A DNA stretch of 64,000 bases from Phapecoctavirus 536P1: sequence record OZ035728.1; one strand, written 5' to 3'. The notes beneath the pieces are model-generated. The model saw only the letters and a program-made list of their open reading frames with translations, was not told where the DNA came from and made no database searches. Numbering within the stretch: position 1 is the first letter of the stretch; every line of letters begins with the position of its first letter. Below, piece by piece: positions 21,485 to 35,343 of the stretch. The translations under genes were made by a program, and so were the position numbers.

Positions 21485-21545
21485 ATTTTGCCTCCTTTTT
21501 AAGTTAACGAACTTCTAGTATAACACGATAGAGGCTTTATTGCAA

Positions 21546-21565
21546 GAGGGGGATTTCTCCCCCTC
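21546..21565 (-). other. GC palindrome GAGGGGGA-TTTC-TCCCCCTC between terD and hydrolase gene (no U-tract)
   Basis: perfect 8-bp arms; same core as hairpin at 2352. Confidence 0.4.
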
Positions 21566-21583: not shown

Positions 21584-22186
21584 TTATGGACATTCATACC
21601 ATTCTTTTTTACCACCGAAGGCCATCACCACATCACAAATATCCAGACCAGCTTTACCTACACCATATGCTTTCAGCTTCCATTCCCCATCTTCACGAAC
21701 CAAGGAAGCCACGTGGCAGATTGTGTTGCCAGCTACTTCAGGAGCCAGGAAGTCAAAATCCAGAATTTCCACATTACGCTCGGAGTCGAAGATTTTAAGC
21801 ATACCTTCAGAAGCATGACCGAAACGTTTCAGACCTGTATCATCATCAATAGTCAGAACAAAGGCAATCTCTTGTGCATCAGGAGAGATTTTAGCCAGAG
21901 TAATATCAATCTGCTCCATGCTGCCAGTTCCATCACGAACATCGTCACCAGCGAAGGTAGAACGTTCAGGATCAAACTTGTTAGCATAGCAAACCAGATG
22001 ACGTGCAGACAGCATTTCAGGATTGCCAGCGGCATTGTGACGACAAACCAGTGCACTTACATCCAGATCCAGTTTAGAATCAGATTTCCAAGAGAACTCC
22101 AGGCGTAGTTCTTTCAGAGCCGGAGCAACTTTCTTCAGGGAAATTTTTTCGCTAGAGCCTTTTTTCAGGGAAATTTTATCAGTCAT
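21584..22186 (-). CDS. terD: TerD-family protein
   Basis: 200 aa; N-terminal ISLKKG...ISLKK repeat, DLDVSAL, GDDVRDGTG, EWKLKAYGVGKAGL blocks match E. coli TerD layout. Confidence 0.8.
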   Translation of the reverse strand: MTDKISLKKGSSEKISLKKVAPALKELRLEFSWKSDSKLDLDVSALVCRHNAAGNPEMLSARHLVCYANKFDPERSTFAGDDVRDGTGSMEQIDITLAKISPDAQEIAFVLTIDDDTGLKRFGHASEGMLKIFDSERNVEILDFDFLAPEVAGNTICHVASLVREDGEWKLKAYGVGKAGLDICDVVMAFGGKKEWYECP

Positions 22187-22201
22187 CTTTTGTCTCCTCT
22201 A

Positions 22202-22471
22202 TTATTTAAGTGTAATACCAGTTACAGTCAATTCTACTTCCAAAAGCTTAGATGTGTTTTGGATTGATACTAATTGTGCATGATGGTTTAGTTCTACAGC
22301 AGAATAATCATTTTCCCCATCATCTACTTTTAAATAAACAATGATTTCACTAAGGTCTAAACCATTTTCGTCAAATGCATTTTCATAGACGAAAGTATCT
22401 CCTACATCCAAATCTTTAATGGTAAGGCATCGTTTATTTACTTTTTGCTCATCAATTTCGAAGTTTAACAC
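22202..22471 (-). CDS. hypothetical protein, paralogue of 23493..23771
   Basis: 89 aa; GTG start with SD AGGAGG; shares DVGDTF and VTGITLK-type blocks with paralogue. Confidence 0.5.
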   Translation of the reverse strand: MLNFEIDEQKVNKRCLTIKDLDVGDTFVYENAFDENGLDLSEIIVYLKVDDGENDYSAVELNHHAQLVSIQNTSKLLEVELTVTGITLK

Positions 22472-22700
22472 TTCTTCCTCCTAATATTATCTCCGGTTTA
22501 TATATACGAAGAATTATAGCATTTTCATTTTCTTTGTCAACCCATTCTTCATAATCAGGCCATACATGAATCTCTACTCTACTTACAATATCTTCCATTC
22601 GCACAGTCCCAATGAAATACTCTTTGAGACTGCACATAATGAAAGCTTCTCTCTCGCGCCAATAATTTTCTATGACTTGAGAGGCAAGCTCGTCGATCAT
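22452..22700 (-). CDS. hypothetical protein
   Basis: 82 aa; start overlaps stop of vWA gene (ATGA). Confidence 0.45.
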   Translation of the reverse strand: MIDELASQVIENYWREREAFIMCSLKEYFIGTVRMEDIVSRVEIHVWPDYEEWVDKENENAIILRIYKPEIILGGRSVKLRN

Positions 22701-23491
22701 TTTTTAGCACCTACTTTAACAACCCACTCTCCGAACTCTTCAGATAAGAGTTTGTCATAAAGCTCTGAATCTGTCAAGTCTAAATCTTTAATGCCAATAA
22801 AACCAACATTATCATAAGCATTTGCCAGTTCTTTCAGGAAGCCAAACTTCTCATTACCAACGCCAACCATGAACCAATAAATAGGTTTATTCTTATTCTC
22901 TTCAATAAGACGACGAACAGCACTAGGATCACCATTCTCACCATCCGTCTGGAAGAATACAACACCAGGGGTAACGTCAGCACCTGGTTCAGACACAGCT
23001 ACAACCTTTTCACGCTCTACAGATACTGTTTCAGTTTTACCAAGCAGACGATTAAAGAAGCCTTTCTTTGGAGCCTCTTCTTGTACCACTTGTTTAGTGG
23101 TAATATATTTGGTAACAGTGCCAAAATACTCATCGTAGATATCTGCCATTACAGGGGCGTAATTTGTTCCACCTCCGATACGAACATTACGCATACATTT
23201 ACCAACATAGTCATCGTAAACGTCTGCTGTTGCTGGAGTAAGCTCTTGGGAACTCGTATTGAAGGCCCACATATCAATTTGTTGATTATCGTCGAACAGC
23301 ATACCAAAAGGAAGCAGTTTACCTACAAAATCACTCACTACCCCACTAGAATATAGACCATGCATACTACCAGAAATATCTAGAGCACATGCTACACGAA
23401 GAACAATCTTACCTTCATTCAGGTTCTTATTCTTTTTCAGAGAGAAAGCAAGGTTTTCTTGACGTTTTTTCAGGCTGATTTTATCGGACAT
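22697..23491 (-). CDS. von Willebrand factor A domain protein (TerY-like)
   Basis: 264 aa; MIDAS motif DISGSM; N-terminus SDKISLKK echoes TerD N-terminus; SD AGAAGGAG. Confidence 0.7.
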   Translation of the reverse strand: MSDKISLKKRQENLAFSLKKNKNLNEGKIVLRVACALDISGSMHGLYSSGVVSDFVGKLLPFGMLFDDNQQIDMWAFNTSSQELTPATADVYDDYVGKCMRNVRIGGGTNYAPVMADIYDEYFGTVTKYITTKQVVQEEAPKKGFFNRLLGKTETVSVEREKVVAVSEPGADVTPGVVFFQTDGENGDPSAVRRLIEENKNKPIYWFMVGVGNEKFGFLKELANAYDNVGFIGIKDLDLTDSELYDKLLSEEFGEWVVKVGAKK

Positions 23492-23492
23492 A

Positions 23493-23771
23493 TTATTTCT
23501 CCTTCTTAAGTGTAATGTTGGTAACTTCTAAATCTACTTCCACCACGTTTGTATCTGGTGCGATACAATGTGTATAACCTCGTTGTGCCATTCCCCCATT
23601 CATGCAGATTGCGCTATTTAGGGAACTTTTAATGAATACTAAATGAACGTAAGGGTCCAATCCTGCGTCTTGATAGGCAGCATAATACATAAATGTGTCC
23701 CCTACATCAAGATATTCAAAAGGAACAAATAAATCTTGACACTTTTCTTCTTGAATATTGAATCTAAACAC
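23493..23771 (-). CDS. hypothetical protein, paralogue of 22202..22471
   Basis: GTG start with SD GAGGAGG chosen (track ORF extends to 23837). Confidence 0.45.
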   Translation of the reverse strand: MFRFNIQEEKCQDLFVPFEYLDVGDTFMYYAAYQDAGLDPYVHLVFIKSSLNSAICMNGGMAQRGYTHCIAPDTNVVEVDLEVTNITLKKEK

Positions 23772-24327
23772 GCATACCTCCTCTACCAATTTTGAAGCCC
23801 AAATCGTAAGCTTCCTTAGTGATCTTTTGTAACTCACTTATAGGAAGTGTTACAAGAGGATCATCTTCTTCAATTTCCATCTTGTCATCTTCTGTTTCAA
23901 TGAGAGTATTATGCACTTTGTGATAAGGGTTGTCAACACGTTTAAACTTATTCTTTTCTGTGCTGAAAAAACAATCTGGATCTTCTTCACCATCACCCCA
24001 ACCTTGGTTAGGATCTCCGTCAGATTGTTCTGTAGGGATTTCACCTGTAAAGTACTCTTCCAGCACCATAGCGATACCGTCCCTTGGATTTGAGGAATGC
24101 ATCAAATCACAAACCTTACCCCAATCCATAGCCCATTCGAACCGTTCACGAACGCCATTTTCATCCTCTTTTCCAGAGAAAACACAACCATAACTATCAT
24201 AGTTGCCATACATCTCTTCAATAACAACACCGTCTTTCAAAAGAAAGAGGTAGCAAGGTGATCCGTCGAAAGAAGTAGAAAGGGCAGCTTTGCCCGATTC
24301 TTTGCACAAAAAACTAAAACAACCCAT
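23764..24327 (-). CDS. hypothetical acidic protein
   Basis: 187 aa; SD AGGAGGG. Confidence 0.55.
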   Translation of the reverse strand: MGCFSFLCKESGKAALSTSFDGSPCYLFLLKDGVVIEEMYGNYDSYGCVFSGKEDENGVRERFEWAMDWGKVCDLMHSSNPRDGIAMVLEEYFTGEIPTEQSDGDPNQGWGDGEEDPDCFFSTEKNKFKRVDNPYHKVHNTLIETEDDKMEIEEDDPLVTLPISELQKITKEAYDLGFKIGRGGMRV

Positions 24328-24530
24328 TACAAACCCTCCTTCAGATTATCAAGAGCTACAGTGGTTTCACAAAATTCTCCATAAGCTTTATGATGTTCCA
24401 GAAAAGCTTCGGGTCCACCCCAGTCATTATCTTGTGTATTCCAACCATCAATAAAAGCATCTTCAATGATTGTGATCAGTTCTTGTCGGGTTAACTGGAT
24501 AATATTAGGATCGTTATCGTAGTTAAACAT
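24327..24530 (-). CDS. hypothetical small protein
   Basis: 67 aa; SD GAGGAGG. Confidence 0.5.
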   Translation of the reverse strand: MFNYDNDPNIIQLTRQELITIIEDAFIDGWNTQDNDWGGPEAFLEHHKAYGEFCETTVALDNLKEGL

Positions 24531-24696
24531 CTTCTTCCTCCTCTAAAATATGAAACCCGTAATTACAATAGTCCTGAAAGGTTTCGTGCGCAAGATCTTC
24601 TATATCCTCTTGAGACATATCATCTTCAATTTCGATATCCACAACCTCATTGCATCCACACCAAGCAGTTTCAATATTCACTCGTAATATTTTCAT
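24526..24696 (-). CDS. hypothetical small Cys-containing protein (56 aa)
   Basis: SD GAGGAGG; start overlaps upstream stop and stop overlaps downstream start. Confidence 0.4.
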
Positions 24697-24890
24697 TACT
24701 CCTCCTCATTGAAGTCAATATCTGCAAGGAGTTGGAATTTACGGAAGTTACGACAACCTTCATAAATATAACAATCACGACAAACTGCTAGAACACTTGG
24801 GGGATATATGCCTCCCATCGGTGCGAATCGTTTTTCGTCATCATAACGGACACCAATGTCTTCATCAATTATATAGATACGGATTCTCAT
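24696..24890 (-). CDS. hypothetical small protein
   Basis: 64 aa; start overlaps stop of TelA-like gene. Confidence 0.45.
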   Translation of the reverse strand: MRIRIYIIDEDIGVRYDDEKRFAPMGGIYPPSVLAVCRDCYIYEGCRNFRKFQLLADIDFNEEE

Positions 24891-25999
24891 TTACCAAGCC
24901 CTCGTTTCACAGCAGCTACCATCCCGTCTTCCAGAGATTGAACTTCATTAATATAATCAACACGAGCAGCACGGGCTTCCGTATTGATGCGGTTAGTTTC
25001 TTCTAACATCTTAACCAAGTTTTCCTGATCGTGACGCAGAGTTTCAATATCGAGCACTTGACGGTTAGCCAGGGCTGCTGCTTCGATCTGATTCTGTGTG
25101 GCAAGATCGCTACCCAGTTTAATTGCCAGGTTAAATTCATCAAGAACGTTATTCTGCGTCTCTGCTGCTTTCATTTGACGTAAGCTCTCGATATACATTG
25201 AGAAGTTAGCAGAGTAAGCAGGAATAACATTATTTACTATGTTACGCGCAGATCGCATTAAGCTTGCAGAAACTTTTTGCATACCTTGTACACGCGGTCC
25301 CATTTGGACACACAGTAGGCGCAATGCCTTTAAATCTGCAATACGAATCTCCAGAAGATCCAAAGTGTCTCGGATCACTTGTCGCTGTTCTACTGCATCT
25401 TCTGGAAGAGCAGCCAAAGCTTGTTCTTCTTTTTCATAGGTTGCTGTTAGAAGCTGCATATCTCGGTTCAAACTTGCAGCATATTGTCCAATAGCTTGAT
25501 GTAGTTTTTCAAGATATACCAAGGAATCTTCTTCTTTGCGAATATCCGTTTGAAGGTTCTTTACCAACTCTTCAATACGGTTATTAACATTATCAAACTC
25601 CCCAAACAGGTCTTCTTTCATACCCATAACTTTTTTAATGAGTTTAGTAATACCTTTGCTTTGTTTAATAGAGTTTGGATCAAGTTGTTTTGCCTGTTTA
25701 ATCAAAGCTGTGAGTCGTTCACTCATCTGATCGCCTTGATTACTACGTTGATGTTTTAATACCTCGGCATTCAAGGAACGCAAGGTTGTTCCTGCCTCTG
25801 CCCCAATCTCTTCGATCTCTTGTCGGGTCATAGAAGGTAAAACTGGAACTTCTTGCGGTGCTGCTGGTGCATAAACAGGACTGGCATCTAACACGCTTGG
25901 AGCGAATACAGATTTACTTGCATCTGTTGTTGCAGCAAATACGCTCATTTCAGGCTTCTTCTGACCACCAGTAGCTGCTTTTAAAAATGGACTTGTCAT
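24887..25999 (-). CDS. TelA-like (toxic anion resistance family) coiled-coil protein, tentative
   Basis: 370 aa, long heptad-like helical segments; size and context beside TerD/vWA/TerC; assignment by context, not by a clear motif. Confidence 0.4.
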   Translation of the reverse strand: MTSPFLKAATGGQKKPEMSVFAATTDASKSVFAPSVLDASPVYAPAAPQEVPVLPSMTRQEIEEIGAEAGTTLRSLNAEVLKHQRSNQGDQMSERLTALIKQAKQLDPNSIKQSKGITKLIKKVMGMKEDLFGEFDNVNNRIEELVKNLQTDIRKEEDSLVYLEKLHQAIGQYAASLNRDMQLLTATYEKEEQALAALPEDAVEQRQVIRDTLDLLEIRIADLKALRLLCVQMGPRVQGMQKVSASLMRSARNIVNNVIPAYSANFSMYIESLRQMKAAETQNNVLDEFNLAIKLGSDLATQNQIEAAALANRQVLDIETLRHDQENLVKMLEETNRINTEARAARVDYINEVQSLEDGMVAAVKRGLGK

Positions 26000-26586
26000 T
26001 CTTCATTCTCCTCTTCTGCATCTCTTATATATGGTGAAACACCGTACTCTTTAGCTACTTTAACCCAATCATCCCATTTATACAACCATAATTTTCCTTC
26101 AGTTCCTTCTTTATCTGATTTCAACCACATATTAGGTTGCTTACCTGGGTACATGCGATTAGGTTTACGATTATAACCTCTAACACATCTTGTCGCAAAC
26201 CTATCTACCAGAACAAGAACATATTTATACTCGTGGTTCAACGGCTCTTTGGAAGTGGCTTTAGGATTAGCCCCTAACTCTGCTGCCAGTTTTTGCCAAT
26301 GAGCACCGTGCCTACTAAACTTACCCATACAACCATCAATAGCATGAGCAATTTCGTGCTTCATTGTATCCACGATCATATCTCTTGTAGAGTTCTTATG
26401 CAAGTGCCAATTTACAACAACAATTTTATCTCGGTAGTTGCACCAACCGAAAGAGTTATTAACTTTGTTTCTAACACAAGCTTTATATCCTGCTTCACGT
26501 AACATGTTGTAGTAAACAGGAAAATCTTCTTTTATTTCCTGCATCACTTCCCACCACAAGAGTTGCAAGTCTCTCTCGGTATACAT
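25996..26586 (-). CDS. SprT-like zinc metallopeptidase domain protein
   Basis: 196 aa; HEIAH...HGAHW (HExxH plus third His). Confidence 0.5.
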   Translation of the reverse strand: MYTERDLQLLWWEVMQEIKEDFPVYYNMLREAGYKACVRNKVNNSFGWCNYRDKIVVVNWHLHKNSTRDMIVDTMKHEIAHAIDGCMGKFSRHGAHWQKLAAELGANPKATSKEPLNHEYKYVLVLVDRFATRCVRGYNRKPNRMYPGKQPNMWLKSDKEGTEGKLWLYKWDDWVKVAKEYGVSPYIRDAEEENEE

Positions 26587-26589
26587 AAC

Positions 26590-27183
26590 TTACACCTTAA
26601 AAGTGAAATGCGTGGTCGTGGCTTCAAAATCAAGGCCAGATAAACGTGCACTGAAATCTGAAATATTTGTAATTAAAAAGCTTTTATGCATACCTAACAC
26701 AGCCACGCTTTCAATATCTTCTACTAACATTTCAATCATGTTAGAAACATGGCTGAACGTAGAGTTTTGTTTTTTGATGGTGTAGAAAGAAAGATTCCCA
26801 CCTGCTGTATAAGATACCTCTTCAAAATCTTTAATCGTATATTGTGTGCCATCAGTAAAGAAAATGGTAGCTTTATTAGTAGCACGTTTCTTGTTTTTTG
26901 GTCCTTTTTTACGTTTACTGCGAGTAGGCAAACCGTTTGGAAATACCGTAGCTACAAATTCTTCAGGAGAAACCTCCTTACCGAAATCATAACCGTAAGA
27001 AACAGCGTCTATAAACTCGTCGTCTTCATTTTTAAAATAATGAAAATAGGGCCAATTTGAGAGATTATCGAGCATCTTATGCTCATCCACAGCAGAGAAC
27101 GTATCCCTCAAAGCACGTGTGATTTGCAAAGCATTAGGCAAACTTTTAACACCTGTAATGGAAGTACGAATAGAAATTGTCAT
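26590..27183 (-). CDS. hypothetical protein
   Basis: 197 aa; SD AAGGAG. Confidence 0.55.
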   Translation of the reverse strand: MTISIRTSITGVKSLPNALQITRALRDTFSAVDEHKMLDNLSNWPYFHYFKNEDDEFIDAVSYGYDFGKEVSPEEFVATVFPNGLPTRSKRKKGPKNKKRATNKATIFFTDGTQYTIKDFEEVSYTAGGNLSFYTIKKQNSTFSHVSNMIEMLVEDIESVAVLGMHKSFLITNISDFSARLSGLDFEATTTHFTFKV

Positions 27184-27197
27184 TGTTTTTCTCCTTA

Positions 27198-27635
27198 TTA
27201 ACGTCGCTTGCTACGAGATGAACTCTTTTTACTTAAAGGGCTATTGTAAGATTTACGAGTTGTATAGCTACTATTTGTTTTAAAAGTTTGTCTCGGCTTT
27301 TCATAAGTTTTTATCTCTTGTTTAGGCTTACTATAAAAATTAGTTTTCGGTTTAGGTGTATTATAATGCTTATTAATAATCGTTCTGTTATCGTTATAAT
27401 CCCCACTGCTACGATTACTACCGCCACTCATCATATGCCCTAACAACATACCTGTAGCAAACTCACCAACACCGCTACTACTAGAACCGCCACCATTGTT
27501 GATAATAGTTGTATCTCCGTCAGATCCTTGTTGAGCGTATTGTTGAGGAGGTTGTTGGTATTGTGCAGGATTTGTTTCATCCTCGCAAGCTGTTAAAAAG
27601 ATACAACCAATTAAAATCAGGGCTAGTTTTTTCAT
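27198..27635 (-). CDS. lipoprotein with Gly/Ser-rich and basic C-terminal regions
   Basis: start at internal ATG giving MKKLALILIGCIFLTAC lipobox signal. Confidence 0.55.
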   Translation of the reverse strand: MKKLALILIGCIFLTACEDETNPAQYQQPPQQYAQQGSDGDTTIINNGGGSSSSGVGEFATGMLLGHMMSGGSNRSSGDYNDNRTIINKHYNTPKPKTNFYSKPKQEIKTYEKPRQTFKTNSSYTTRKSYNSPLSKKSSSRSKRR

Positions 27636-27818
27636 ATTTGCTTTCCTCGTTTTGGCTATTAATACATCTGTGTTTGAAATCTCCAGAGAAGCAATAAAGT
27701 TGCTCTCCATCTCGGTATAAACTCACTTTACTGCCGTTGATTACGCTTGTCAATACAAAAATTACAACAAACAACCCTATTGCAAAACAAATATTTTCAA
27801 ACACAACCAACAAGTATT

Positions 27819-28169
27819 TCATTTTAAAAATACCTCATCATCAGTTTCATTATCCCAGAAGAACAAGTCCCAACCATTCGGATCATTCCATTTAGCTGCT
27901 GGAGAAGTCCATATTTGCTCGATATCAATATTCAAAACTTCACCGTTTCGTTTTGAAACAGCTTTAGTTAATTCCCAACGGGATACAGGCTCCACTTCCC
28001 CTGAACCACTCCCACAACAAGCTACCACATTAGGAGGCAAATTAATTGGATCTTTGGTCACAATCATAACGCTTACCCCAGGGTAAACTTTTGAAAGATA
28101 ATCTGAAACGTAATCAACATCATCAGGTAAATCCCAAACAAGTTTTTGAATTTCATCAAAATTACTCAT
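27819..28169 (-). CDS. hypothetical acidic protein
   Basis: 116 aa; SD AGGAGAG. Confidence 0.55.
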   Translation of the reverse strand: MSNFDEIQKLVWDLPDDVDYVSDYLSKVYPGVSVMIVTKDPINLPPNVVACCGSGSGEVEPVSRWELTKAVSKRNGEVLNIDIEQIWTSPAAKWNDPNGWDLFFWDNETDDEVFLK

Positions 28170-28211
28170 AAGTCTCTCCTATAAAATAGCCTCCCGAAGG
28201 AGGCTCATCTA

Positions 28212-29186
28212 TTAAACAGCAGCTTCTTCTTTTTCAGGGAAGATAAAGCTTGCAATAACACCAAGAGCTAATGTGCCTAGAACAATCATCAGACTTACGT
28301 TAGGGGAAATATCATGCGGGAGGAATGACCACTTGGCATGAAGTGTTTCACCGAACGGGTGATACATAAGTTTAGCACCAACAAACACCAGAACCACAGC
28401 AACAGCTTTCTCTAAGTGAACCAGATATTTCACAGCTACACTTAACACAAAGAAAAGTGCACGTAAACCAAGAACAGCCATCAGCATTGCAGAATAAACT
28501 AGCAGAGGTTCTTGTGTCACACCAATAACAGCCGGAACTGAATCAAAAGAGAACACAATATCTGTAAGCTCAATAACAAACACACAAAGAAGAGCAGGAG
28601 TTGCATATTTAATACCATTCTTAATGGTAATGAACTTTTCACCATCCAGTGCGTTGTGCACAGGCAGAACTTTACCTACTAAACGAACAGCCCAATGTTT
28701 AGAGTAATCAATATCTTCTTCTTCGTCACCACCTTTGATAATAGCAACGGCAGACCAAGCTACAATCAGACCGAACAACACTTGGACCGACCAATGCAGG
28801 TTAAACAAAGCTGTCCCTGCTGCAACAAAAACACCTCGGAAGACAATGGCACCTGCAATACCCCAAAGTAAAATCTTATGTTGGAGATGTGTGCTCTTAA
28901 TTCCAAAGCTTGCAAAAATTGCCATGAACACCATTAGGTTATCTACAGAAAGACTCTTTTCCAACACATATCCACTTAGGAAAAGTGCGGCAAACTCTTT
29001 ACCATGCTCTACCCAAATGAATGCGTAATATCCTAAAGCTAAAGCAATCCAAAAAACAGACCAAAGCAAAGCAGATTTAATTCCAATTTCTTTATTCTCT
29101 TTATGACCAAAGAAATCGATACCAATAGACAATGCCAAAATACCAACTAAAACAACTACATCAATAATTGGGAAACCGAGTTGCAT
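28212..29186 (-). CDS. terC: TerC-family integral membrane protein
   Basis: 324 aa, multiple TM segments; duplicated TerC motifs VLEKSLSVDNLMVF and IELTDIVFSFDSVPAV. Confidence 0.8.
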   Translation of the reverse strand: MQLGFPIIDVVVLVGILALSIGIDFFGHKENKEIGIKSALLWSVFWIALALGYYAFIWVEHGKEFAALFLSGYVLEKSLSVDNLMVFMAIFASFGIKSTHLQHKILLWGIAGAIVFRGVFVAAGTALFNLHWSVQVLFGLIVAWSAVAIIKGGDEEEDIDYSKHWAVRLVGKVLPVHNALDGEKFITIKNGIKYATPALLCVFVIELTDIVFSFDSVPAVIGVTQEPLLVYSAMLMAVLGLRALFFVLSVAVKYLVHLEKAVAVVLVFVGAKLMYHPFGETLHAKWSFLPHDISPNVSLMIVLGTLALGVIASFIFPEKEEAAV

Positions 29187-29213
29187 TCTTTTCTCCTCTC
29201 TTTGCGGGGAACT

Positions 29214-29262
29214 ATTCCCCGCTTCATGTGATATATCTTACTCTTTTTAAGAACTATGTCAA
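29214..29262 (-). promoter_or_regulatory. promoter-hairpin cassette upstream of terC (same architecture as the 51-60 kb array)
   Basis: minus strand reads TTGACA-N16-TAAGAT, then GCGGGGAA-TAG-TTCCCCGC stem-loop, then AAAGAGAGGAG leader and terC ATG. Confidence 0.6.
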
Positions 29263-29265
29263 CAC

Positions 29266-29487
29266 TTATTTTGTTGAATGAGAGGAAAAGATTCCTCGTA
29301 ATACCGCCAGAATAAACGAAACACAAACCACGGTCCAGAAGGTTACTGGGACAGTGATATCTGCATGACCCATAACTTCAGCAACATAGTTGTAAGCCAG
29401 CAACAGTAACCAAGCTGGAATCAAACTAAGCATAAAAGCAATAACAAAAAAGCTTACCACTGCAACAATACCTGCAAAAACACCCAT
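29266..29487 (-). CDS. small membrane protein
   Basis: 73 aa, two hydrophobic helices; SD AGAGGAG. Confidence 0.55.
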   Translation of the reverse strand: MGVFAGIVAVVSFFVIAFMLSLIPAWLLLLAYNYVAEVMGHADITVPVTFWTVVCVSFILAVLRGIFSSHSTK

Positions 29488-29499
29488 ACTAATCTCCTC

Positions 29500-29973
29500 T
29501 TAAAGTTTATAAATAGTCACATCGTGACCTGTTTTTACTAAAGTTTCTTCAATCATCACTTGGATGATAGCCCAATTACCTCCAGCATATCCAGCGCCAA
29601 TCATAGGTAAGCCGATCTTACATTTTTGGTCACGGAGAAGCAAATCATTAGCCATAGCTATTAGTGCATCGTAAAGTGCATCATAGTCCAACTGACGACC
29701 TTTAGCATTGTATCCGTAACGGTATTGTCCGTATAGATTATATACCAAAGGGTCTGATTGTTCGTCTGGCACCCCTAAACTAAAAGAACCTAACTTACTT
29801 TGATCACCAGCCATTGTGTCTAAATCTGCCGCATATGCATAAGGGAATGCTCGTTTAATTTGCGGAGCAATTCCTGCTCCCATATTACACATACAATTGC
29901 AACAATGAGCAATAACAGTTACTTCTCCTGCTTTAGCGGCATCAATAAGATTACCTGTTTTCATTTTAAGCAT
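29500..29973 (-). CDS. macro domain protein (ADP-ribose binding/processing)
   Basis: start at internal ATG with SD AAGGAG (track ORF extends to 30078); VIAHCCNCMCNMGAGIA and LPMIGAGYAGG macro-like blocks. Confidence 0.55.
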   Translation of the reverse strand: MLKMKTGNLIDAAKAGEVTVIAHCCNCMCNMGAGIAPQIKRAFPYAYAADLDTMAGDQSKLGSFSLGVPDEQSDPLVYNLYGQYRYGYNAKGRQLDYDALYDALIAMANDLLLRDQKCKIGLPMIGAGYAGGNWAIIQVMIEETLVKTGHDVTIYKL

Positions 29974-29986
29974 TTTTAGCTCCTTA

Positions 29987-30814
29987 TTACAGAATATGTT
30001 GTTTTGTGTAACGATCCAAGAATTCAAAGTTTTCAGCATACTTTGAAATTCGGTTGTAACCTTCTCCCAAACATCCAAAGAAAAGTTGCTCTACATAGTA
30101 GTGTGGCAATTGGCTAAGAATGATTTTGAAGTCTTCGTGATTTTGGCCCATAAGATACTTAATAGGACGAACAAGGCACTGTGCATCACGTTCTTCATTA
30201 ATCATTTTAACAAACGCTTCTGGTGTATTAATGTAGTTAAAATTCAGTTTAGCTTCGGTATCTGCTTGATTACCTTCGTATTTTGCAAAATACAAGAAGT
30301 AAACATCATTTTTAACTTGATTTTCATCAAGGATCTCAATCAGTTTGTCTTCATGCGTTCCAGTGATATTTACATCATCAATGAATACAAGCTTCTTATC
30401 ACCCCAGAATTCTTTGTTGCAGTAGAATGTATCACCATCAATAAGTTTCTTACGACTAGCTTTATCCAAGAAACCATAATCGTTGATATAGCTAACTTTA
30501 CGATGAATAATGTCCAGTTCTGCTGAACGACCTTGATCATATTGTGATTGCAACATATTAAAATAATTAATAAAATGATCTGTCATCATTGTTGCAGCAT
30601 TATGCACATGGTTATAAGGAGAAGGAATGATAACAAATTGTTCCCCAATATGTTTCATTGCCACTTGAGCAAAAAACTGAAGTGCCAATTCTTTACCCAT
30701 ACGACGCGCAGCCTGGTTACTACCAAATTTCAATTTTGAATAATCTTGGATATCAAAAGTAGCAGTTTCCAAGTCATCAAATTTATTTGCAAAAATTTGA
30801 GTTTGATTACGCAT
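29987..30814 (-). CDS. type I phosphoribosyltransferase-family protein
   Basis: 275 aa; PRPP-binding-like KKLVFIDDVNITGTH; SD GAGGAG. Confidence 0.55.
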   Translation of the reverse strand: MRNQTQIFANKFDDLETATFDIQDYSKLKFGSNQAARRMGKELALQFFAQVAMKHIGEQFVIIPSPYNHVHNAATMMTDHFINYFNMLQSQYDQGRSAELDIIHRKVSYINDYGFLDKASRKKLIDGDTFYCNKEFWGDKKLVFIDDVNITGTHEDKLIEILDENQVKNDVYFLYFAKYEGNQADTEAKLNFNYINTPEAFVKMINEERDAQCLVRPIKYLMGQNHEDFKIILSQLPHYYVEQLFFGCLGEGYNRISKYAENFEFLDRYTKQHIL

Positions 30815-31463
30815 TTACAATTTCTCCTCTTTTAAGTTTCTCTAGTAAGTCGTTAGGGTTCTTAATATGACAAAAGTTAAATCCTAAGTCAACACATTTT
30901 CCATCATATTCTTCACTATCGCCTACGTGCAACACTTCGTGCCCTAATAGAGGGATCGGAGAATACGTGAGCGTGCGAGCAAAGAATCGCGGGTCTGGTT
31001 TACAAAGTAAAGCTTCATCCGAGAAATGGGTGAACTCAAAACAATTCCAACTATCAAACTTACAAGCACGACGCAGGATATCCCCTGATATGAAGTTGGT
31101 GTTGCTCTTAATACTCAAATCATAACGCCCCGAAAGATACAGCAAGTACATCGGCAGATCTACGGCTACGTGTGGTGGAAACTTAAGGAACCACTGTTCA
31201 CACTCGAAACGAAGCTTTGCAGACTTCCAAGGCGTTATCCCAAGTTCAGAACCAAGTCTTTCCCAGGCGTATGCTGCACACTCGGCTTTGCCTTGAAGTG
31301 CTGCATTATCCAGTTCCTTTTTGATCTTTTTATAAGCTGCTCTTGCTTCCACTTCCGTAATATCTCCATATTTTGCGATAGTCCAGGCTCGCATGTCTGC
31401 GTAATTGGAGTTTGCTGTGATCAGTGTGTTCCATACATCAAAAGAGATATGTTTAATAGTCAT
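30807..31463 (-). CDS. HAD-superfamily hydrolase/phosphatase-like protein
   Basis: 218 aa; motif I-like ISFDVWNTLI and motif IV-like HVGDSEEYD. Confidence 0.5.
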   Translation of the reverse strand: MTIKHISFDVWNTLITANSNYADMRAWTIAKYGDITEVEARAAYKKIKKELDNAALQGKAECAAYAWERLGSELGITPWKSAKLRFECEQWFLKFPPHVAVDLPMYLLYLSGRYDLSIKSNTNFISGDILRRACKFDSWNCFEFTHFSDEALLCKPDPRFFARTLTYSPIPLLGHEVLHVGDSEEYDGKCVDLGFNFCHIKNPNDLLEKLKRGEIVNA

Positions 31464-31464
31464 A

Positions 31465-32070
31465 TTAAGCCCACCATGCGTCTAAGTTAAGATTACTGTC
31501 CACTACTACTTGTTCTATGTGGTAGCCTTTTATCTGTATCCCACTGTTCAAGAGCATATCATACGCTTCATTGAAACGCAACTTATCTTCTGCGGAATAT
31601 AAGCGAGCATTATAAAATCGGTAATCAATTTCTTCAGCATTAGAAGAAATACGGAAGAAGTTTGTTTCTACTTCGGGATCACTTGCTGAAGTCTTAATGT
31701 GAACTTCTCCATAATTTTCTTTACTTAGATCCATGAAAAGAACACAGGCGACATGTTTAAACATTCGTTCCAGTTTGTAACGAACAACATTGAAACCTGC
31801 ATTCTCAAGTTTTTCTACACACTGCAACATTAAAGTAGTGTCGAGATCGCTTTGATATTTTGTTAACATACGATCACGTTGAGATTTTGTATCCCGATGT
31901 AAATCAATTGTTGTGCATTTGGCACCAATAATCTTAGCTGCTTTCATCAACTCTTCAGAACTAACGTTAGATAAAGTAAGATGAAAATGGGCTTTCCACA
32001 CTTTTTTAGCAGGGACACCAAAAGATTTATCCCCGCTATTTGGCATGTTAACTACTACACTATGTTGCAT
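31465..32070 (-). CDS. hypothetical protein
   Basis: start at ATG after SD GAGGAG (track begins at adjacent GTG). Confidence 0.55.
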   Translation of the reverse strand: MQHSVVVNMPNSGDKSFGVPAKKVWKAHFHLTLSNVSSEELMKAAKIIGAKCTTIDLHRDTKSQRDRMLTKYQSDLDTTLMLQCVEKLENAGFNVVRYKLERMFKHVACVLFMDLSKENYGEVHIKTSASDPEVETNFFRISSNAEEIDYRFYNARLYSAEDKLRFNEAYDMLLNSGIQIKGYHIEQVVVDSNLNLDAWWA

Positions 32071-32085
32071 CACTTATCTCCTCAC

Positions 32086-32290: not shown

Positions 32291-32761
32291 TTAATCTGAT
32301 TGCCAACCACTTGCCGTTTTGGTCCATAATCTTTGATTATCTGACCCTCTGAAAGGTTTTGTAGTTGGATTGTTTATTTCATACTTTCCGTCTACAATAA
32401 TGTCAACAAGATTTTTAATATACAAAGGCACTTCCTCAAAAGTATATCCTGTATACACCATTATATCTTTGCTTGACCCATAAACGTCTCTAACCTTTTC
32501 TATAAGGTTTTTAACATTGTAAATATTCTGCGGATCTAATGGCTCTCCTCCTAAAATTGTTAAACCTTTTACAAACGGTCTTGACAAATCTTTTAAAACT
32601 TGCTCTACATTTTCGTGAGTAAATGGTTTCCCATAAGAATAAGACCAGGCTTTTTGGTTAAAACAGCCACGACAACCGTGGCTACAACCACTAACCCAGA
32701 GGGAGCACCTAACTCCCTCGCCATTAATAAGATCTACAGGTTCATATCCTGCAAAATTCAA
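32291..32761 (-). CDS. nrdG: anaerobic ribonucleotide reductase activating protein (radical SAM)
   Basis: 156 aa; YEPVDLINGEGVRCSLWVSGCSHGCRGCFN matches NrdG N-terminus with CxxxCxxC cluster; TTG start overlapping nrdD stop. Confidence 0.85.
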   Translation of the reverse strand: MNFAGYEPVDLINGEGVRCSLWVSGCSHGCRGCFNQKAWSYSYGKPFTHENVEQVLKDLSRPFVKGLTILGGEPLDPQNIYNVKNLIEKVRDVYGSSKDIMVYTGYTFEEVPLYIKNLVDIIVDGKYEINNPTTKPFRGSDNQRLWTKTASGWQSD

Positions 32762-33729
32762 AGATGTTTCTCCCTTTGCAAAACTTCCTGCATTTTACCT
32801 TTGTTGTAAGGGCGTGAATTAGGGGCAGAAAGATACCCTGACACACGTCTAACTACAGAAATAGTTTCTTCTTCATGGTTGCCACAATCAGGACACTCAA
32901 ACCCTTTAGCCGTTGCCTTAAATTCTCCATGAAAACCACACTTAAAGCATTGATCCACGGGCTGATTAATACCAAAATAGTGAATATGTTCATAAGCGTA
33001 GTCTACTAAAGTCTCCAAAGCTTCTAAGTTATTCTTTAAGTTTGGTGTTTCTACGTAACTTATGTTACCACCATTACTAATCTGTGCAAAACCTGCTTCA
33101 TAATCCCATTTTTCAAAAGGATTTGTTACCAACCATACAGGTTGATGAAAAGAGTTAGTAAGATAGTCTCTTTCTACCAAACCTGGGTATTTTTCATTTA
33201 AAGCTGTTGCAAACTTATAGCACAAGGATTCTGCTGGAGTTCCATAGAGACTAAACGCCAGCTTAGATCGCTCTTTAAACACAGCACACACATCTTTCAT
33301 ATGTTGCAGAATGTTTTTACCAAGTTCCTTTTTATCTTTTTCTTCTGGATAAAGGATTTCCAAAGCTTCAGCAAGACCTACATAACCAATACTAATAGAA
33401 GCATAACCACCTTCAAACAAAACACCAATTTCATCATTGGCATTTAAACGCGCTAAAGCCCCTTCCATGAAAAGAATAGGGTTTTCAGATGCTTTGGTAT
33501 GTCTGATACGGTTTACACGTAGCATGTGAGCATCGTAGGCTATCTCCATATGTTTATTAAGAAGATCGGTGAAAGATTCTCCTTTACTTCTCGCTTCCGC
33601 AGCAATCAGAGGCAAGTTGATAGAAACTACTCCAAGGTTGAATCGTCCATCATATTTTTCTCCTTGCTCTGTTGCATAGTATGACAAGAAACTTCTACAC
33701 ATTATGTTCAAAGTGGCTCGCAAGGCCAC
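32758..33729 (-). CDS. nrdD: anaerobic ribonucleoside-triphosphate reductase, C-terminal part (downstream exon/fragment)
   Basis: Zn-ribbon CFKCG...CPDCG and glycyl-radical motif RRVSGYL at C-terminus; first residues of the ORF are probably insertion-derived. Confidence 0.75.
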   Translation of the reverse strand: MALRATLNIMCRSFLSYYATEQGEKYDGRFNLGVVSINLPLIAAEARSKGESFTDLLNKHMEIAYDAHMLRVNRIRHTKASENPILFMEGALARLNANDEIGVLFEGGYASISIGYVGLAEALEILYPEEKDKKELGKNILQHMKDVCAVFKERSKLAFSLYGTPAESLCYKFATALNEKYPGLVERDYLTNSFHQPVWLVTNPFEKWDYEAGFAQISNGGNISYVETPNLKNNLEALETLVDYAYEHIHYFGINQPVDQCFKCGFHGEFKATAKGFECPDCGNHEEETISVVRRVSGYLSAPNSRPYNKGKMQEVLQREKHL

Positions 33730-34520
33730 TCCCGCACCATTACGTGCTGCTGCATGTCACCATGCAGATCAGACTATATCTTCATGCTTAAAGCATGTCT
33801 ACCATTTGGGGTGTCATAGGCTTACACCCTACGCTGCTACATTCATCACAGCTAGTCGTTAGGCATTTCGTAACAGAACTCATAATCATAATTATTTGGT
33901 GCTCCTTGTTTTAAGATTGCAGATATTCTTTTTCTGTCCAACCCTAAAGCGTCAGCACAACATCTCAGACTTTTAAAGTAAAAAACTTCACCAGTAGCCT
34001 TATGAGTAGCTTTTACACTGTGACACCTTGTGTAGAAAGCATAACAGTTATTATCGTAACCCTCTTGCGTGTTGTCTGGACAAGATCCCCACTCAAGATT
34101 GTATACACTGTTGTCTTTCCTATTGTCACCTTTATGCTTCACATAAGGTAAATTGTCTGGATTGGGTAAAAACGCTTCAGCTACAAGTCTGTGCACCCGA
34201 AAGCAAACAGTTTTCTTGTTTTTACGTATTCTGACAAGTTGGTATCCTGTGTTTATTTCTTCCCACGAGCGAAGGATTCTTTCATCCTTATACCTGGTAC
34301 AATAAACATTTCCAAGCTCGTCAATTTCATACCCTTCAAAATCACGAATTTGTTTTCTCATATCAGTACCCCCCTTCTTCTGTGTTGGGAGTTCTGTTAC
34401 GTTTAGCACGGGATTGTCTCTGTTGAGAGTTCCCCCGTTTAGGCAGATTTTACATGAGCAGTTATAGTTTACCCATACTCGTAACAGTGCCATCTGCTGA
34501 TCCCGTAACTTCTTTGTTCA
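33730..34520 (-). mobile_element. insertion splitting nrdD: putative group I intron carrying an HNH homing endonuclease ORF (boundaries approximate)
   Basis: nrdD reading frame broken into 293-aa and 323-aa pieces that together give about 600 aa; about 120 nt of GC-rich, hairpin-rich non-coding sequence lies between HNH stop and downstream nrdD piece. Confidence 0.45.
33852..34361 (-). CDS. HNH homing endonuclease (intron-encoded candidate)
   Basis: start at internal ATG (MRKQIRDFEGYEIDELGNVY); VHRLVAEAF and KHKGDNRKDNSVYNLEWGS HNH-type blocks. Confidence 0.6.
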   Translation of the reverse strand: MRKQIRDFEGYEIDELGNVYCTRYKDERILRSWEEINTGYQLVRIRKNKKTVCFRVHRLVAEAFLPNPDNLPYVKHKGDNRKDNSVYNLEWGSCPDNTQEGYDNNCYAFYTRCHSVKATHKATGEVFYFKSLRCCADALGLDRKRISAILKQGAPNNYDYEFCYEMPND

Positions 34521-35343
34521 AAGGAACAGAAATAAAATCTGGATAAATACGATCAGCACAACATGCCAAAGCTTGTTGCTTAAGGTCATAGTTAGGATCA
34601 CTAGGTTTCATGTTAACACCTTCTTGTAAAAAGAAAATAACTTTAGGGAATACAGGCGTTACATGATCTTTGCCTAGACCGTTACTATGCACTTTAAGAT
34701 AGTTAGCTGTAATCATTCTGCCAAAAACAGAGGTATCCAGACCCATACTGATTGTAATAAAAGGAGATTGTCCATTAACACTCATTAAAGTATTAACCTG
34801 ATACAAGAGAGTTTGCATAGCATCATATACATCTTGTTCGGTCATTTCTAGGGCTTCTTTCCTTGCATAACAACCGTAGCGACGTTTGGTTATCTCCATG
34901 TTTTTAAGGAAACTAGCTTCAACATAAGGACTAAGACCTTTATCAATGTGCGCACACGTCTGACCTCCATACTGACTGGAGGCAACAGCTTGGATAATTT
35001 GAGTTAGCACTGTGGTAGCTACCCCAATAGATTTTGGTTTTTCTATCTGTGCGGCTCCGATCTTAAAACCATTCTCTAACATATCTTGATAATTAACAAG
35101 ACAACAGTTTGTAAGAGGAGAGAGTAGATAATCCAAGTCGTGAATATGTCCAAAACCTTCTGTATGCCATTCTGACAAGTTTTTTGGCAGTATCTGTGTC
35201 ATTGCCATATGTTTGCTTAAAATCCCCGCCAAGAGATCCCTATGCGTGTTAACGAGGTGGGAAGGTTTGTTTGCATTCTCTCTAGTGTATGTTTCTGAAG
35301 TGCGATCTAAAAAAGAAAAAACATCTTGGTACAAATCTTTCAT
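34462..35343 (-). CDS. nrdD: anaerobic ribonucleoside-triphosphate reductase, N-terminal part (upstream exon/fragment; 3' end of ORF runs into insertion)
   Basis: 293-aa ORF upstream of and co-linear with C-terminal nrdD piece; SD AAGGA. Confidence 0.6.
   Translation of the reverse strand: MKDLYQDVFSFLDRTSETYTRENANKPSHLVNTHRDLLAGILSKHMAMTQILPKNLSEWHTEGFGHIHDLDYLLSPLTNCCLVNYQDMLENGFKIGAAQIEKPKSIGVATTVLTQIIQAVASSQYGGQTCAHIDKGLSPYVEASFLKNMEITKRRYGCYARKEALEMTEQDVYDAMQTLLYQVNTLMSVNGQSPFITISMGLDTSVFGRMITANYLKVHSNGLGKDHVTPVFPKVIFFLQEGVNMKPSDPNYDLKQQALACCADRIYPDFISVPLNKEVTGSADGTVTSMGKL

Follow-up and report, generated by a model that had tools for sequence, protein, structure and literature searches.

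Tellurite resistance (Ter) systems that include a phosphoribosyltransferase (PRTase) and a HAD-type hydrolase have already been described in phages, in the Acinetobacter jumbo phage vB_AbaM_ME3, in Caulobacter jumbo phages and in 'certain other related smaller tailed phages', and superinfection exclusion, a role in the competition with superinfecting phages, was proposed for them (Iyer et al., 2021; PMC7824862). As summarized in the same paper, a biosynthetic module with PRTase and HAD had been predicted as part of bacterial ter loci (Anantharaman, 2012), and the initial annotation of the DNA studied here was correct in referring to this prediction. Ter clusters were also found in Klebsiella phage phiKp34 (PMC8386662) and in phiPsa374, where what they do while the phage infects is stated to be unknown (PMC9796965). 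Phenotypes of bacterial Ter genes comprise phage inhibition and resistance to pore-forming colicins, tellurite, Zn and Mn (PMC8386662, PMC12054061), and Klebsiella terC was shown to affect Zn and Mn resistance as well as phage phenotypes (PMC12054061). Here, a stretch of 64,000 nucleotides from Phapecoctavirus 536P1 (sequence record OZ035728.1; the whole stretch is called the window) was analyzed, in which a minus-strand block at 21584-32073 was shown by sequence comparison to carry a minimal Ter hub (TerC of the Alx-type exporter family, TelA, a TerF-type vWA protein and TerD) together with a HAD-PRTase_3 cassette of the kind known beside bacterial Ter genes.

Conceptually the locus is not new; modules of this type are known from other large phages. 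The novelty implied by the initial annotation did not stand, since Iyer et al. (2021; PMC7824862), PMC8386662 and PMC9796965 precede it, as do the names used in GenBank, where records of the subfamily and of Klebsiella relatives already read tellurite resistance, TerC, TelA-like, VWA, phosphoribosyltransferase, HAD and macro; such names stand on most of the genes in published genomes at 98.6% identity to the window. A description of the Stephanstirmvirinae locus as a unit was not found in the literature, one paper on Phapecoctavirus and tellurite standing outside this statement, and in the literature from 2022 on no mechanistic advance on Ter was found beyond the study of terC with its Zn, Mn and phage phenotypes. 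All open reading frames (ORFs) named in the initial annotation were present on the minus strand at the coordinates it had given. The core genes, with product lengths in amino acids (aa), are:

21584-22186, minus strand: TerD-domain protein, 200 aa (Pfam TerD, 3.2e-28)
22697-23491, minus strand: TerF-type vWA protein, 264 aa (Pfam vWA-TerF-like, 1.6e-37)
24887-25999, minus strand: TelA-family protein, 370 aa (Pfam TelA, 1.2e-33)
28212-29186, minus strand: TerC/Alx-family integral membrane protein, 324 aa (Pfam TerC, 3.2e-40)
29987-30814, minus strand: type I phosphoribosyltransferase, PRTase_3 (ComF-like), 275 aa (Pfam PRTase_3, 2.2e-41)
30807-31463, minus strand: HAD-superfamily hydrolase, 218 aa, upstream partner of the PRTase (NCBIfam HAD-IA matches; phrog_14393)

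The family assignments made earlier for the block all held, those of TerD, vWA-TerF-like, TelA, TerC, PRTase_3 and SprT-like by Pfam, that of the macrodomain by Pfam Macro and matches in the PDB, and that of the HAD protein by NCBIfam and motifs. Profile searches placed the product of 21584-22186 in TerD (PF02342) with 98.9 bits over residues 5-179 (cut-off 25.3), and its sequence matched the TerD entry 2kxt in the PDB (1.5e-15). The vWA protein scored 130.1 bits against vWA-TerF-like (PF10138; cut-off 29.4) and has the intact MIDAS motif DxSxS that had been noted (D38-I-S40-G-S42). The TerD-like N-terminus also claimed for it was reduced to a motif of about 20 residues shared with TerD (MSDKISLKK versus MTDKISLKK, 8 of the 9 residues agree, and a second xSLKK comes next); no Pfam match to TerD was found in this protein, so that it does not have the full-length TerF architecture, in which TerD is fused to vWA. 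TelA (PF05816) reached 117 bits against a cut-off of 30 over model positions 13-327 of 332, and it matched phrog_5890, 'tellurite resistance', with 7e-140.

The product of 28212-29186 was placed in TerC (PF03741) with 138.2 bits (cut-off 27.8) and was also above the cut-off of NCBIfam TIGR03718 (Alx/TerC; 318.8 bits against 246.4). Escherichia coli Alx and Bacillus subtilis MeeF/MeeY are TerC-family Mn2+ exporters and metalation factors, with which the phage protein shares membership of TIGR03718 and five acidic transmembrane residues. In E. coli Alx, these five residues are needed for Mn2+ export (PMC10197570). The corresponding residues of the phage protein, E76-x5-D82 and E206-x2-D209-x5-D215, have a spacing identical to that of Alx E86, D92, E213, D216 and D222. 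By this comparison TerC keeps the residues required for Mn2+ export by Alx, and transport by the phage protein is putative. A search for an Mn riboswitch (yybP-ykoY) or other Rfam element upstream of TerC gave none at gathering threshold or with E <= 1. In contrast to alx and the meeF/meeY genes, phage terC has no yybP-ykoY or pH-responsive leader; a sigma-70-type promoter and a short hairpin in the 5' untranslated region (5'-UTR) are found instead.

The PRTase was assigned to PRTase_3 (PF15610) by the profile match, a loop for binding phosphoribosyl pyrophosphate (PRPP) and the PRT fold; catalysis is putative. It shares a ComF-like fold with the ComF-like type I PRTases at 9% identity to ComF, and differs from ComF in an extra C-terminal helical domain of approximately 90 residues (in the model, its helices begin at about residue 186). 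It also differs from ComF-like enzymes in that the phage PRTase gene is always paired with that of a HAD enzyme with a DxWxT motif. The HAD protein itself was under the Pfam Hydrolase cut-off (21.2 bits against 26.4), and its assignment rests on NCBIfam HAD-IA matches, on Pfam HAD matches of its homologues and on conserved motifs I-IV, of which D9, SNT, K (in CKPD) and GDSEEYD were conserved across 24 homologues. Motif I reads DVWNT, with the nucleophile Asp present and Trp at position D+2; this Trp was found in all aligned phage homologues but one, which has Tyr, and also in bacterial homologues.

Compared with the jumbo-phage systems, of which ME3 was compared by its description, the locus contains the same families (TerD, TerC, TerF-type vWA and TelA with PRTase/HAD) in a virulent phage, and both the PRTase-HAD pair and TerD have true homologues in the Caulobacter and Brevundimonas phages. 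It differs in belonging to an approximately 150-kb non-jumbo E. coli phage of the Stephanstirmvirinae, where the module extends across about 10 kb, with small genes interleaved and with separate promoters and terminators; only one PRTase_3 is present, the Ca2+ motif of TerD is degenerate, and the macro, SprT-like and 202-aa genes are lineage-specific neighbors. As in a Ter system with a linked biosynthetic module, PRTase and HAD share a neighborhood with TerD, TerC, TelA and vWA. Of the further enzymes of such a module, ATP-grasp and a TIM-barrel lyase, neither was detected in the ORFs of the block that were scanned. With terZABCDEF of IncHI2 plasmid R478, E. coli O157 and Klebsiella, and with telA/klaA, the phage shares the families TerC, TerD, the vWA domain of TerF and TelA. 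Unlike terZABCDEF, it has one TerD, a vWA protein without TerD domain, TelA within the block, no TerB and no TerZ/A/E array. It also differs from bacterial ter in being encoded by a lytic phage, and tellurite resistance is not to be inferred from it, as was argued for phiPsa374 (PMC9796965). The phiPsa374-like Pseudomonas phages and phiKp34 likewise have TerC-TerD-TerF(vWA)-TelA in virulent phages; here the hub stands with HAD-PRTase, whereas those groups are not among the 156 phage records with PRTase_3.

The HAD gene was directly upstream of the PRTase gene in 25 of 25 phage loci and in 19 of 21 loci from bacterial genome assemblies, the two exceptions being a fragmented copy without HAD (L041) and a fragmented pair with a short gap (L045). 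Divergent phage loci numbered 16, with two near-duplicates among them; in 7, the pair had at least two Ter genes within 10 kb, in varying orders. Two divergent metagenomic contigs with phage-type genes contained compact clusters of the order TerC-x-TerD-x-vWA-HAD-PRT. In bacteria, the pair was found beside arrays of two to four TerD paralogues in metagenome-assembled genomes (MAGs) of Bacteroidales, in a Peribacteria MAG and in Pedococcus; the Pedococcus locus adds TelA and vWA, and one MAG adds TerC. All-against-all clustering of 38 non-redundant loci showed HAD to be the commonest neighbor of the PRTase, followed by TerD (14 loci), TerC and vWA (10 loci each) and TelA (8 loci). PRTase was detected in 156 phage records and TerD in 148, in almost the same phage groups; TelA-like genes were present in 224 phage records. 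That HAD-PRTase_3 recurs with TerD, vWA, TelA and TerC, both in bacteria and in phage contigs that are unrelated, agrees with the earlier claim that the two halves are linked. This recurrent co-localization, in phages and in bacteria of several phyla, suggests that the Ter hub and HAD-PRTase are probably linked in function. The earlier grouping of PRTase, HAD and macro as a trio has to be narrowed: only HAD-PRTase is invariant, and adjacency of macro is limited to Stephanstirmvirinae-type loci, five of the seven loci (of 38) in which macro was counted among the neighbors.

In a megablast search, 64 phage records covered at least 80% of 21584-32073, with Escherichia phage vB_EcoM-Ro121c4YLVW as top match (98.6% identity) and phAPEC8 at 97.2%; the taxonomy line of the phAPEC8 record gives Stephanstirmvirinae, Phapecoctavirus. 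The block is part of a long minus-strand arm that runs from a divergent point at about 44 kb, placed by the switch in GC skew and the annotation of a relative, through nrdD/nrdG and the module to endolysin and glycosyltransferase genes. The order (202-aa)-HAD-PRT-Macro-73-aa membrane protein-TerC-81-aa membrane protein-lipoprotein-197-aa-(SprT)-TelA-...-vWA-TerD-...-endolysin was common to phi92 (Justusliebigvirus; locus L002), Klebsiella phage KP2025 (locus L003) and five IMG/VR contigs, with 48-88% aa identity for the main genes. Thus, the genes were neither scattered nor non-conserved in relatives. In the Ter, PRT, HAD and macro genes, the ratio of nonsynonymous to synonymous substitution rates (dN/dS) was 0.04-0.25, with dS at or near saturation in most comparisons. 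It was 0.06-0.12 for TerD, which showed 81-91% aa identity to relatives and was at least 99% identical at protein level across 64 phage records, and 0.04-0.13 for TelA; vWA showed 66-74% identity to relatives. The Pfam E-values and the conserved synteny exclude chance. On these comparisons, the Ter genes and HAD-PRTase are shown to be a conserved part of the leftward arm of the phage, under purifying selection.

Promoter-like and terminator-like sites were found at the borders of the Ter genes:

22513-22540, minus strand: sigma-70 consensus TTGACA-16-TG-TATAAT, 12/12 with extended -10, upstream of an 89-aa ORF and TerD
23908-23936, minus strand: sigma-70-like TTGACA-17-CATAAT, 11/12, upstream of a 114-aa ORF and vWA
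29235-29262, minus strand: TerC promoter-like TTGACA-16-TAAGAT, at the position of a 'host dependent promoter' annotated in phAPEC8
29204-29222, minus strand: perfect 8-bp hairpin in the TerC 5'-UTR, GCGGGGAA-TAG-TTCCCCGC, between -10 and ribosome-binding site
28188-28205, minus strand: terminator-like hairpin AGCCTCCTTCGGGAGGCT, directly 3' of TerC
21545-21564, minus strand: GC-rich terminator-like hairpin GAGGGGGA-GAAA-TCCCCCTC, just 3' of the TerD stop

Sites equivalent to the TerD promoter were present in phi92 (L002 20050-20077) and KP2025 (L003 19861-19888). For vWA, a site with the same hexamers and spacing was found in phi92 (L002 18812-18840), and KP2025 has one related to it (L003 18734-18762); for TerC, equivalent sites were located 47-50 nt upstream of the gene in both phages. 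The positions of the promoter-like sites were thus shared by three diverged genomes although the intergenic sequence had diverged, which suggests that TerC, TerD and vWA may be expressed early by the host polymerase. KP2025 has the same hairpin sequence 3' of TerC (L003 14964-14981), and equivalent hairpins follow TerD in phi92 and KP2025; in the window, the latter hairpin directly precedes an endolysin promoter-like site at 21517-21545. The hairpin in the TerC 5'-UTR could be a stabilizing or regulatory stem-loop.

We tentatively read the module, with somewhat less than even confidence, as a device that acts early to protect the envelope or to exclude other phages, with the help of a nucleoside-like cofactor, for which we infer the assembly of a complex, the metabolite and the phenotype. 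This reading draws on the family memberships with their intact motifs, the conserved order and purifying selection, the recurrent linkage of hub and pair, the shared promoter positions, and the bacterial Ter phenotypes together with the published proposal of exclusion. TerC, TerD and vWA would be transcribed early by host RNA polymerase, each from its own sigma-70-type promoter. TerC would be located in the inner membrane and move divalent cations, for example Mn2+ or Zn2+; a sub-membrane layer would consist of TelA and the MIDAS-bearing vWA protein, and TerD would be a soluble ligand- or metal-binding adaptor. The PRTase would couple PRPP to a base and the HAD enzyme would dephosphorylate the product, and the resulting nucleoside-like compound would be a signal to the hub or a cofactor of it. 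Superinfecting phages would then fail to bring their genomes through the envelope of the infected cell, which would also become refractory to pore-forming toxins. By analogy, the phenotypes of plasmid ter, phage inhibition and colicin resistance, would here serve the resident phage. A more specific version, in which HAD-PRTase_3 makes a nucleoside-like second messenger or cofactor early in infection, by which a membrane complex of TerC, TelA, vWA and TerD is activated to exclude superinfecting phages or protect the membrane, is considered unlikely.

Several observations weigh against envelope protection or exclusion by such a module. The pair was found without a Ter gene within 10-15 kb in Rhizobium phages, in XaC1 and in several contigs, TerD of CcrColossus is 28 kb from the HAD-PRT pair, and Rhizobiaceae genomes carry the pair without Ter genes. 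Phages of the phiPsa374 type have the hub, yet none of them turned up among the 156 records of the PRTase search. The link between pair and hub is therefore recurrent but separable, not obligate. The Ca2+-binding motif of TerD is degenerate (GDDVRDGT-GSME versus the canonical GDN(R/L)TG(E/A)GDGDDE), with three Asp positions that read T, S and M in this lineage, whereas the acidic motif was intact in the other phage and bacterial TerDs aligned; the Klebsiella TerD reference in this alignment was approximate, and the HMMER alignment to 2kxt gave the same difference. The HAD enzyme lacks the general acid at D+2, so that phosphatase chemistry is assumed, and judged from the motif its chemistry may differ from that of standard HAD phosphatases. 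The TerB and TerZ/A/E paralogues of classical ter operons are absent; among 20 ORFs of the block scanned against Pfam (the scan left aside a 57-aa ORF at 24523-24696 and the 81-aa ORF at 27577-27822), TerB was not found and TerD-domain matches were limited to one. Promoter-like sites numbered 52 in total compared to 42.9 +/- 4.6 in shuffled sequences, about two standard deviations above, and it is therefore the conservation of their positions that has to carry the promoter argument. In the literature, functional data for phage Ter genes were not found, and PMC9796965 describes the function as unknown.

An alternative that we regard as unlikely is that the module serves metal homeostasis only, with no exclusion; TerC would either export Mn2+/Zn2+ in the manner of Alx/MeeF or supply secreted proteins with metal as a chaperone. 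Metal levels in the cytoplasm or periplasm would be retuned for phage enzymes or envelope proteins, and TerD, vWA and TelA would be metal-sensing accessories. This would fit a TerC that is above the Alx/TerC cut-off and keeps all five acidic residues of Alx, the effect of Klebsiella terC on Zn and Mn resistance (PMC12054061), and the nature of the vWA MIDAS and TerD as metal-binding modules. It leaves the tight association with PRTase-HAD and TelA unexplained, however, and is also weakened by the lack of an Mn riboswitch or other metal-responsive element upstream and by the degenerate metal site of TerD in this lineage.

The initial annotation had suggested host takeover or counter-defense as the purpose of the system. 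This is possible, and nothing found here favors it over exclusion or envelope protection. In its explicit form, with the hub stabilizing the inner membrane against depolarizing or perforating abortive-infection effectors of the host and PRTase, HAD and macro destroying or remodeling nucleotide-derived immune signals of the host or reversing ADP-ribosylation, counter-defense appears improbable. Three lineage-specific neighbors are located in the block:

29500-29973, minus strand: macrodomain protein, 157 aa (Pfam Macro, 22.7 bits, cut-off 22; phrog_335)
25996-26586, minus strand: SprT-like zinc metallopeptidase (Pfam SprT-like, 4.2e-9; HEIAH at residue 77)
31465-32073, minus strand: 202-aa protein directly upstream of HAD, with a tandem ferredoxin-like fold in the model

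The macro ORF as first called extends over 29500-30078; ATG at 29973, as in relatives, is a likelier start than TTG at 30078. Its sequence matched the SCO6735 macrodomain in the PDB (5e3b; 5e-13), and also BT1257, TARG1 and DarG. By these matches it probably belongs to the SCO6735/BT1257/TARG1/DarG clade, which is de-ADP-ribosylating and which, together with the apparent early expression of the genes and the protection that bacterial Ter gives against pore-forming colicins (PMC8386662, PMC12054061), speaks for counter-defense. Within this clade it would fall in the SCO6735/BT1257 subgroup. The positions of TARG1 'TKKR' and 'GLDR' read 'GQYR' and 'GYAG', like in SCO6735 and BT1257, so that the protein lacks the catalytic Lys and Asp of TARG1 (K84 and D125). 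Against the DarG equivalog it scored 34 bits, far under the cut-off of 250, and it lacks the DarT-binding C-terminal part. Nor is it a conserved partner of the pair: it adjoins the PRTase only in Stephanstirmvirinae-type loci and is elsewhere about 7-8 kb off in two loci and otherwise absent within the flanks. No component of the module matched a known anti-defense protein, and no Ter protein matched a PADLOC model. The 202-aa gene is part of the span reported in the initial annotation, which gave no description of it. The 202-aa protein matched two PADLOC models labeled AbiEi (4.8e-13, residues 30-201) without a Pfam match to AbiEi; no Pfam family and no PDB sequence match were found for it. 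Its AlphaFold2 model (mean predicted local distance difference test score, pLDDT, 81) has a tandem ferredoxin/ACT-like fold with no significant structural neighbor in the PDB; the AbiEi fold consists of a winged helix and a C-terminal domain. The homologues detected were all at least 54% identical and form a narrow family; Phapecoctavirus and Klebsiella relatives carry the gene, and the phi92 locus does not. For the SprT-like protein, no homologue was found in the phi92 locus either. From their distribution, macro, SprT-like and the 202-aa protein are lineage-specific neighbors outside the core.

The same low probability is given to the view that two unrelated sets of genes happen to be neighbors, HAD-PRTase and macro belonging to the nrdD/nrdG nucleotide block for salvage or a modified nucleotide and the Ter genes being independent of them. 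The pair does adjoin nrdG/nrdD here, in the Rhizobium phages and XaC1 it is located near nucleotide, NAD or tRNA genes without nearby Ter genes, and the phiPsa374-like phages have the hub without the pair. This view does not, however, predict the co-localization that recurs with rearranged gene order in 7 divergent phage loci and across several bacterial phyla, nor the almost identical distribution of PRT and TerD across phage groups, and a nucleotidase paired directly with the PRTase would undo salvage. That the genes are largely dispensable accessory cargo without a joint role, as the interleaved small fast-evolving ORFs and the SprT-like, 202-aa and 116-aa genes that come and go between relatives might indicate, is very improbable given a core dN/dS of 0.04-0.25 with dS at or near saturation, a TerD at least 99% identical in 64 records, and conserved synteny and promoters.

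Many bacteria and large virulent phages carry Ter genes, which protect against phages, colicins and tellurite. In the locus described here, hub and HAD-PRTase form a core, selected and apparently early-expressed module of a phage group with members isolated on E. coli K-12, which makes it tractable for deletion genetics, metabolomics and biochemistry. The strict pairing of HAD and PRTase and their separable link to Ter narrow the question to one small molecule and the response of TerD and the membrane complex. Should the hub indeed be switched by a small molecule, then, since close relatives infect E. coli K-12, an account of the phage module would also show how the Ter systems of bacteria work, a question that dates back to 1995 or earlier.

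The remaining genes of the block encode small or membrane-associated proteins, and no significant Pfam family was found for the interleaved small ORFs:

22202-22471, minus strand: small ORF, 89 aa, paralogue of 23493-23837, no Pfam family
23493-23837, minus strand: small ORF, 114 aa, paralogue of 22202-22471, directly before the vWA gene, no Pfam family
23764-24327, minus strand: conserved 187-aa protein, 76% identity to the phi92 homologue, dN/dS 0.10-0.15, no Pfam family
26590-27183, minus strand: fast-evolving 197-aa protein, phrog_27550, 28-45% identity to relatives, no Pfam family
27198-27635, minus strand: predicted lipoprotein with lipobox LTAC (MKKLALILIGCIFLTAC), adjoining TerC in the subfamily
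27577-27822, minus strand: single-pass membrane protein, 81 aa, hydrophobic N-terminus, conserved in L002, L003 and L011-L013
27819-28169, minus strand: 116-aa protein, only in Phapecoctavirus and the relative L013
29266-29487, minus strand: multi-pass membrane protein, 73 aa, hydrophobic, encoded between macro and TerC, conserved in L002, L003 and L011-L013

The lipoprotein probably starts at an internal Met (MKKLALILIGCIFLTAC, window position 27635), and homologues of it were found in L002, L003, L011, L012 and L022. The SprT-like, 202-aa and 116-aa genes were missing from some relatives. The 89-aa and 114-aa ORFs were identified as paralogues by their matches to one phi92 ORF and to one hidden Markov model. 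They are located just upstream of TerD and of vWA, respectively, each behind a strong sigma-70-like promoter; phi92 has one copy of this ORF family, before the vWA gene.

Other genes were observed around the pair in distant loci. The Rhizobium, Sinorhizobium and Ensifer loci (L027-L038, L040 and L041), on chromosomes and plasmids, are without Ter genes, and the Rhizobium phages carry the pair without detectable TerD. In one of these loci (L036 9286-11591) the pair is followed by a gene for a ClpP-like protease, with a HipA toxin gene nearby. A YqeY-like (GatB_Yqey) gene of approximately 145 aa was present within 9 kb of the pair in 8 of the 38 loci (L002, L003, L004, L009, L012, L020, L022 and L023), and directly downstream of it in L009; YqeY is a common gene of large phages, and no homologue was found in the window. 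NAD salvage as a setting for the pair, considered in view of the PnuC, NMNAT/Nudix and YqeY genes that neighbor it in some loci, was not adopted; for the upstream part of the arm, the annotation showed no NAD-salvage genes. The 'x' genes of the compact operons (L008 4603-5772 and 7094-8029; L009 5392-6600 and 7311-8486; 311-402 aa) gave no significant Pfam family, only a sub-threshold match to DUF6505 (E 0.006), and were negative with the TelA profile; they could be unrecognized Ter partners.

Identities to relatives were mixed within 28212-31463. TerC was 88% identical to that of KP2025 and 72% to that of L013, the latter being closer to the window than KP2025 for most other genes of the block, and HAD was 93% identical to L013 and 56% to KP2025, with the neighboring PRTase at 79% to L013. 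This mosaic suggests that recombination among relatives may have occurred inside the module. Upstream of the module, nrdD was found to be split into 32758-33729 and 34462-35343 (minus strand) by an insertion at 33730-34493. The insertion carries a 213-aa ORF (33852-34493) with weak HNH_3 and I-HmuI NUMOD-like matches, and it contains a full-length Rfam match to a group I intron at 33750-33989 (39.3 bits, gathering score 50; E 3.6e-7). In the relative EF1-1, nrdD is uninterrupted with 1815 nt, and the phi92 annotation gives a spliced nrdD.

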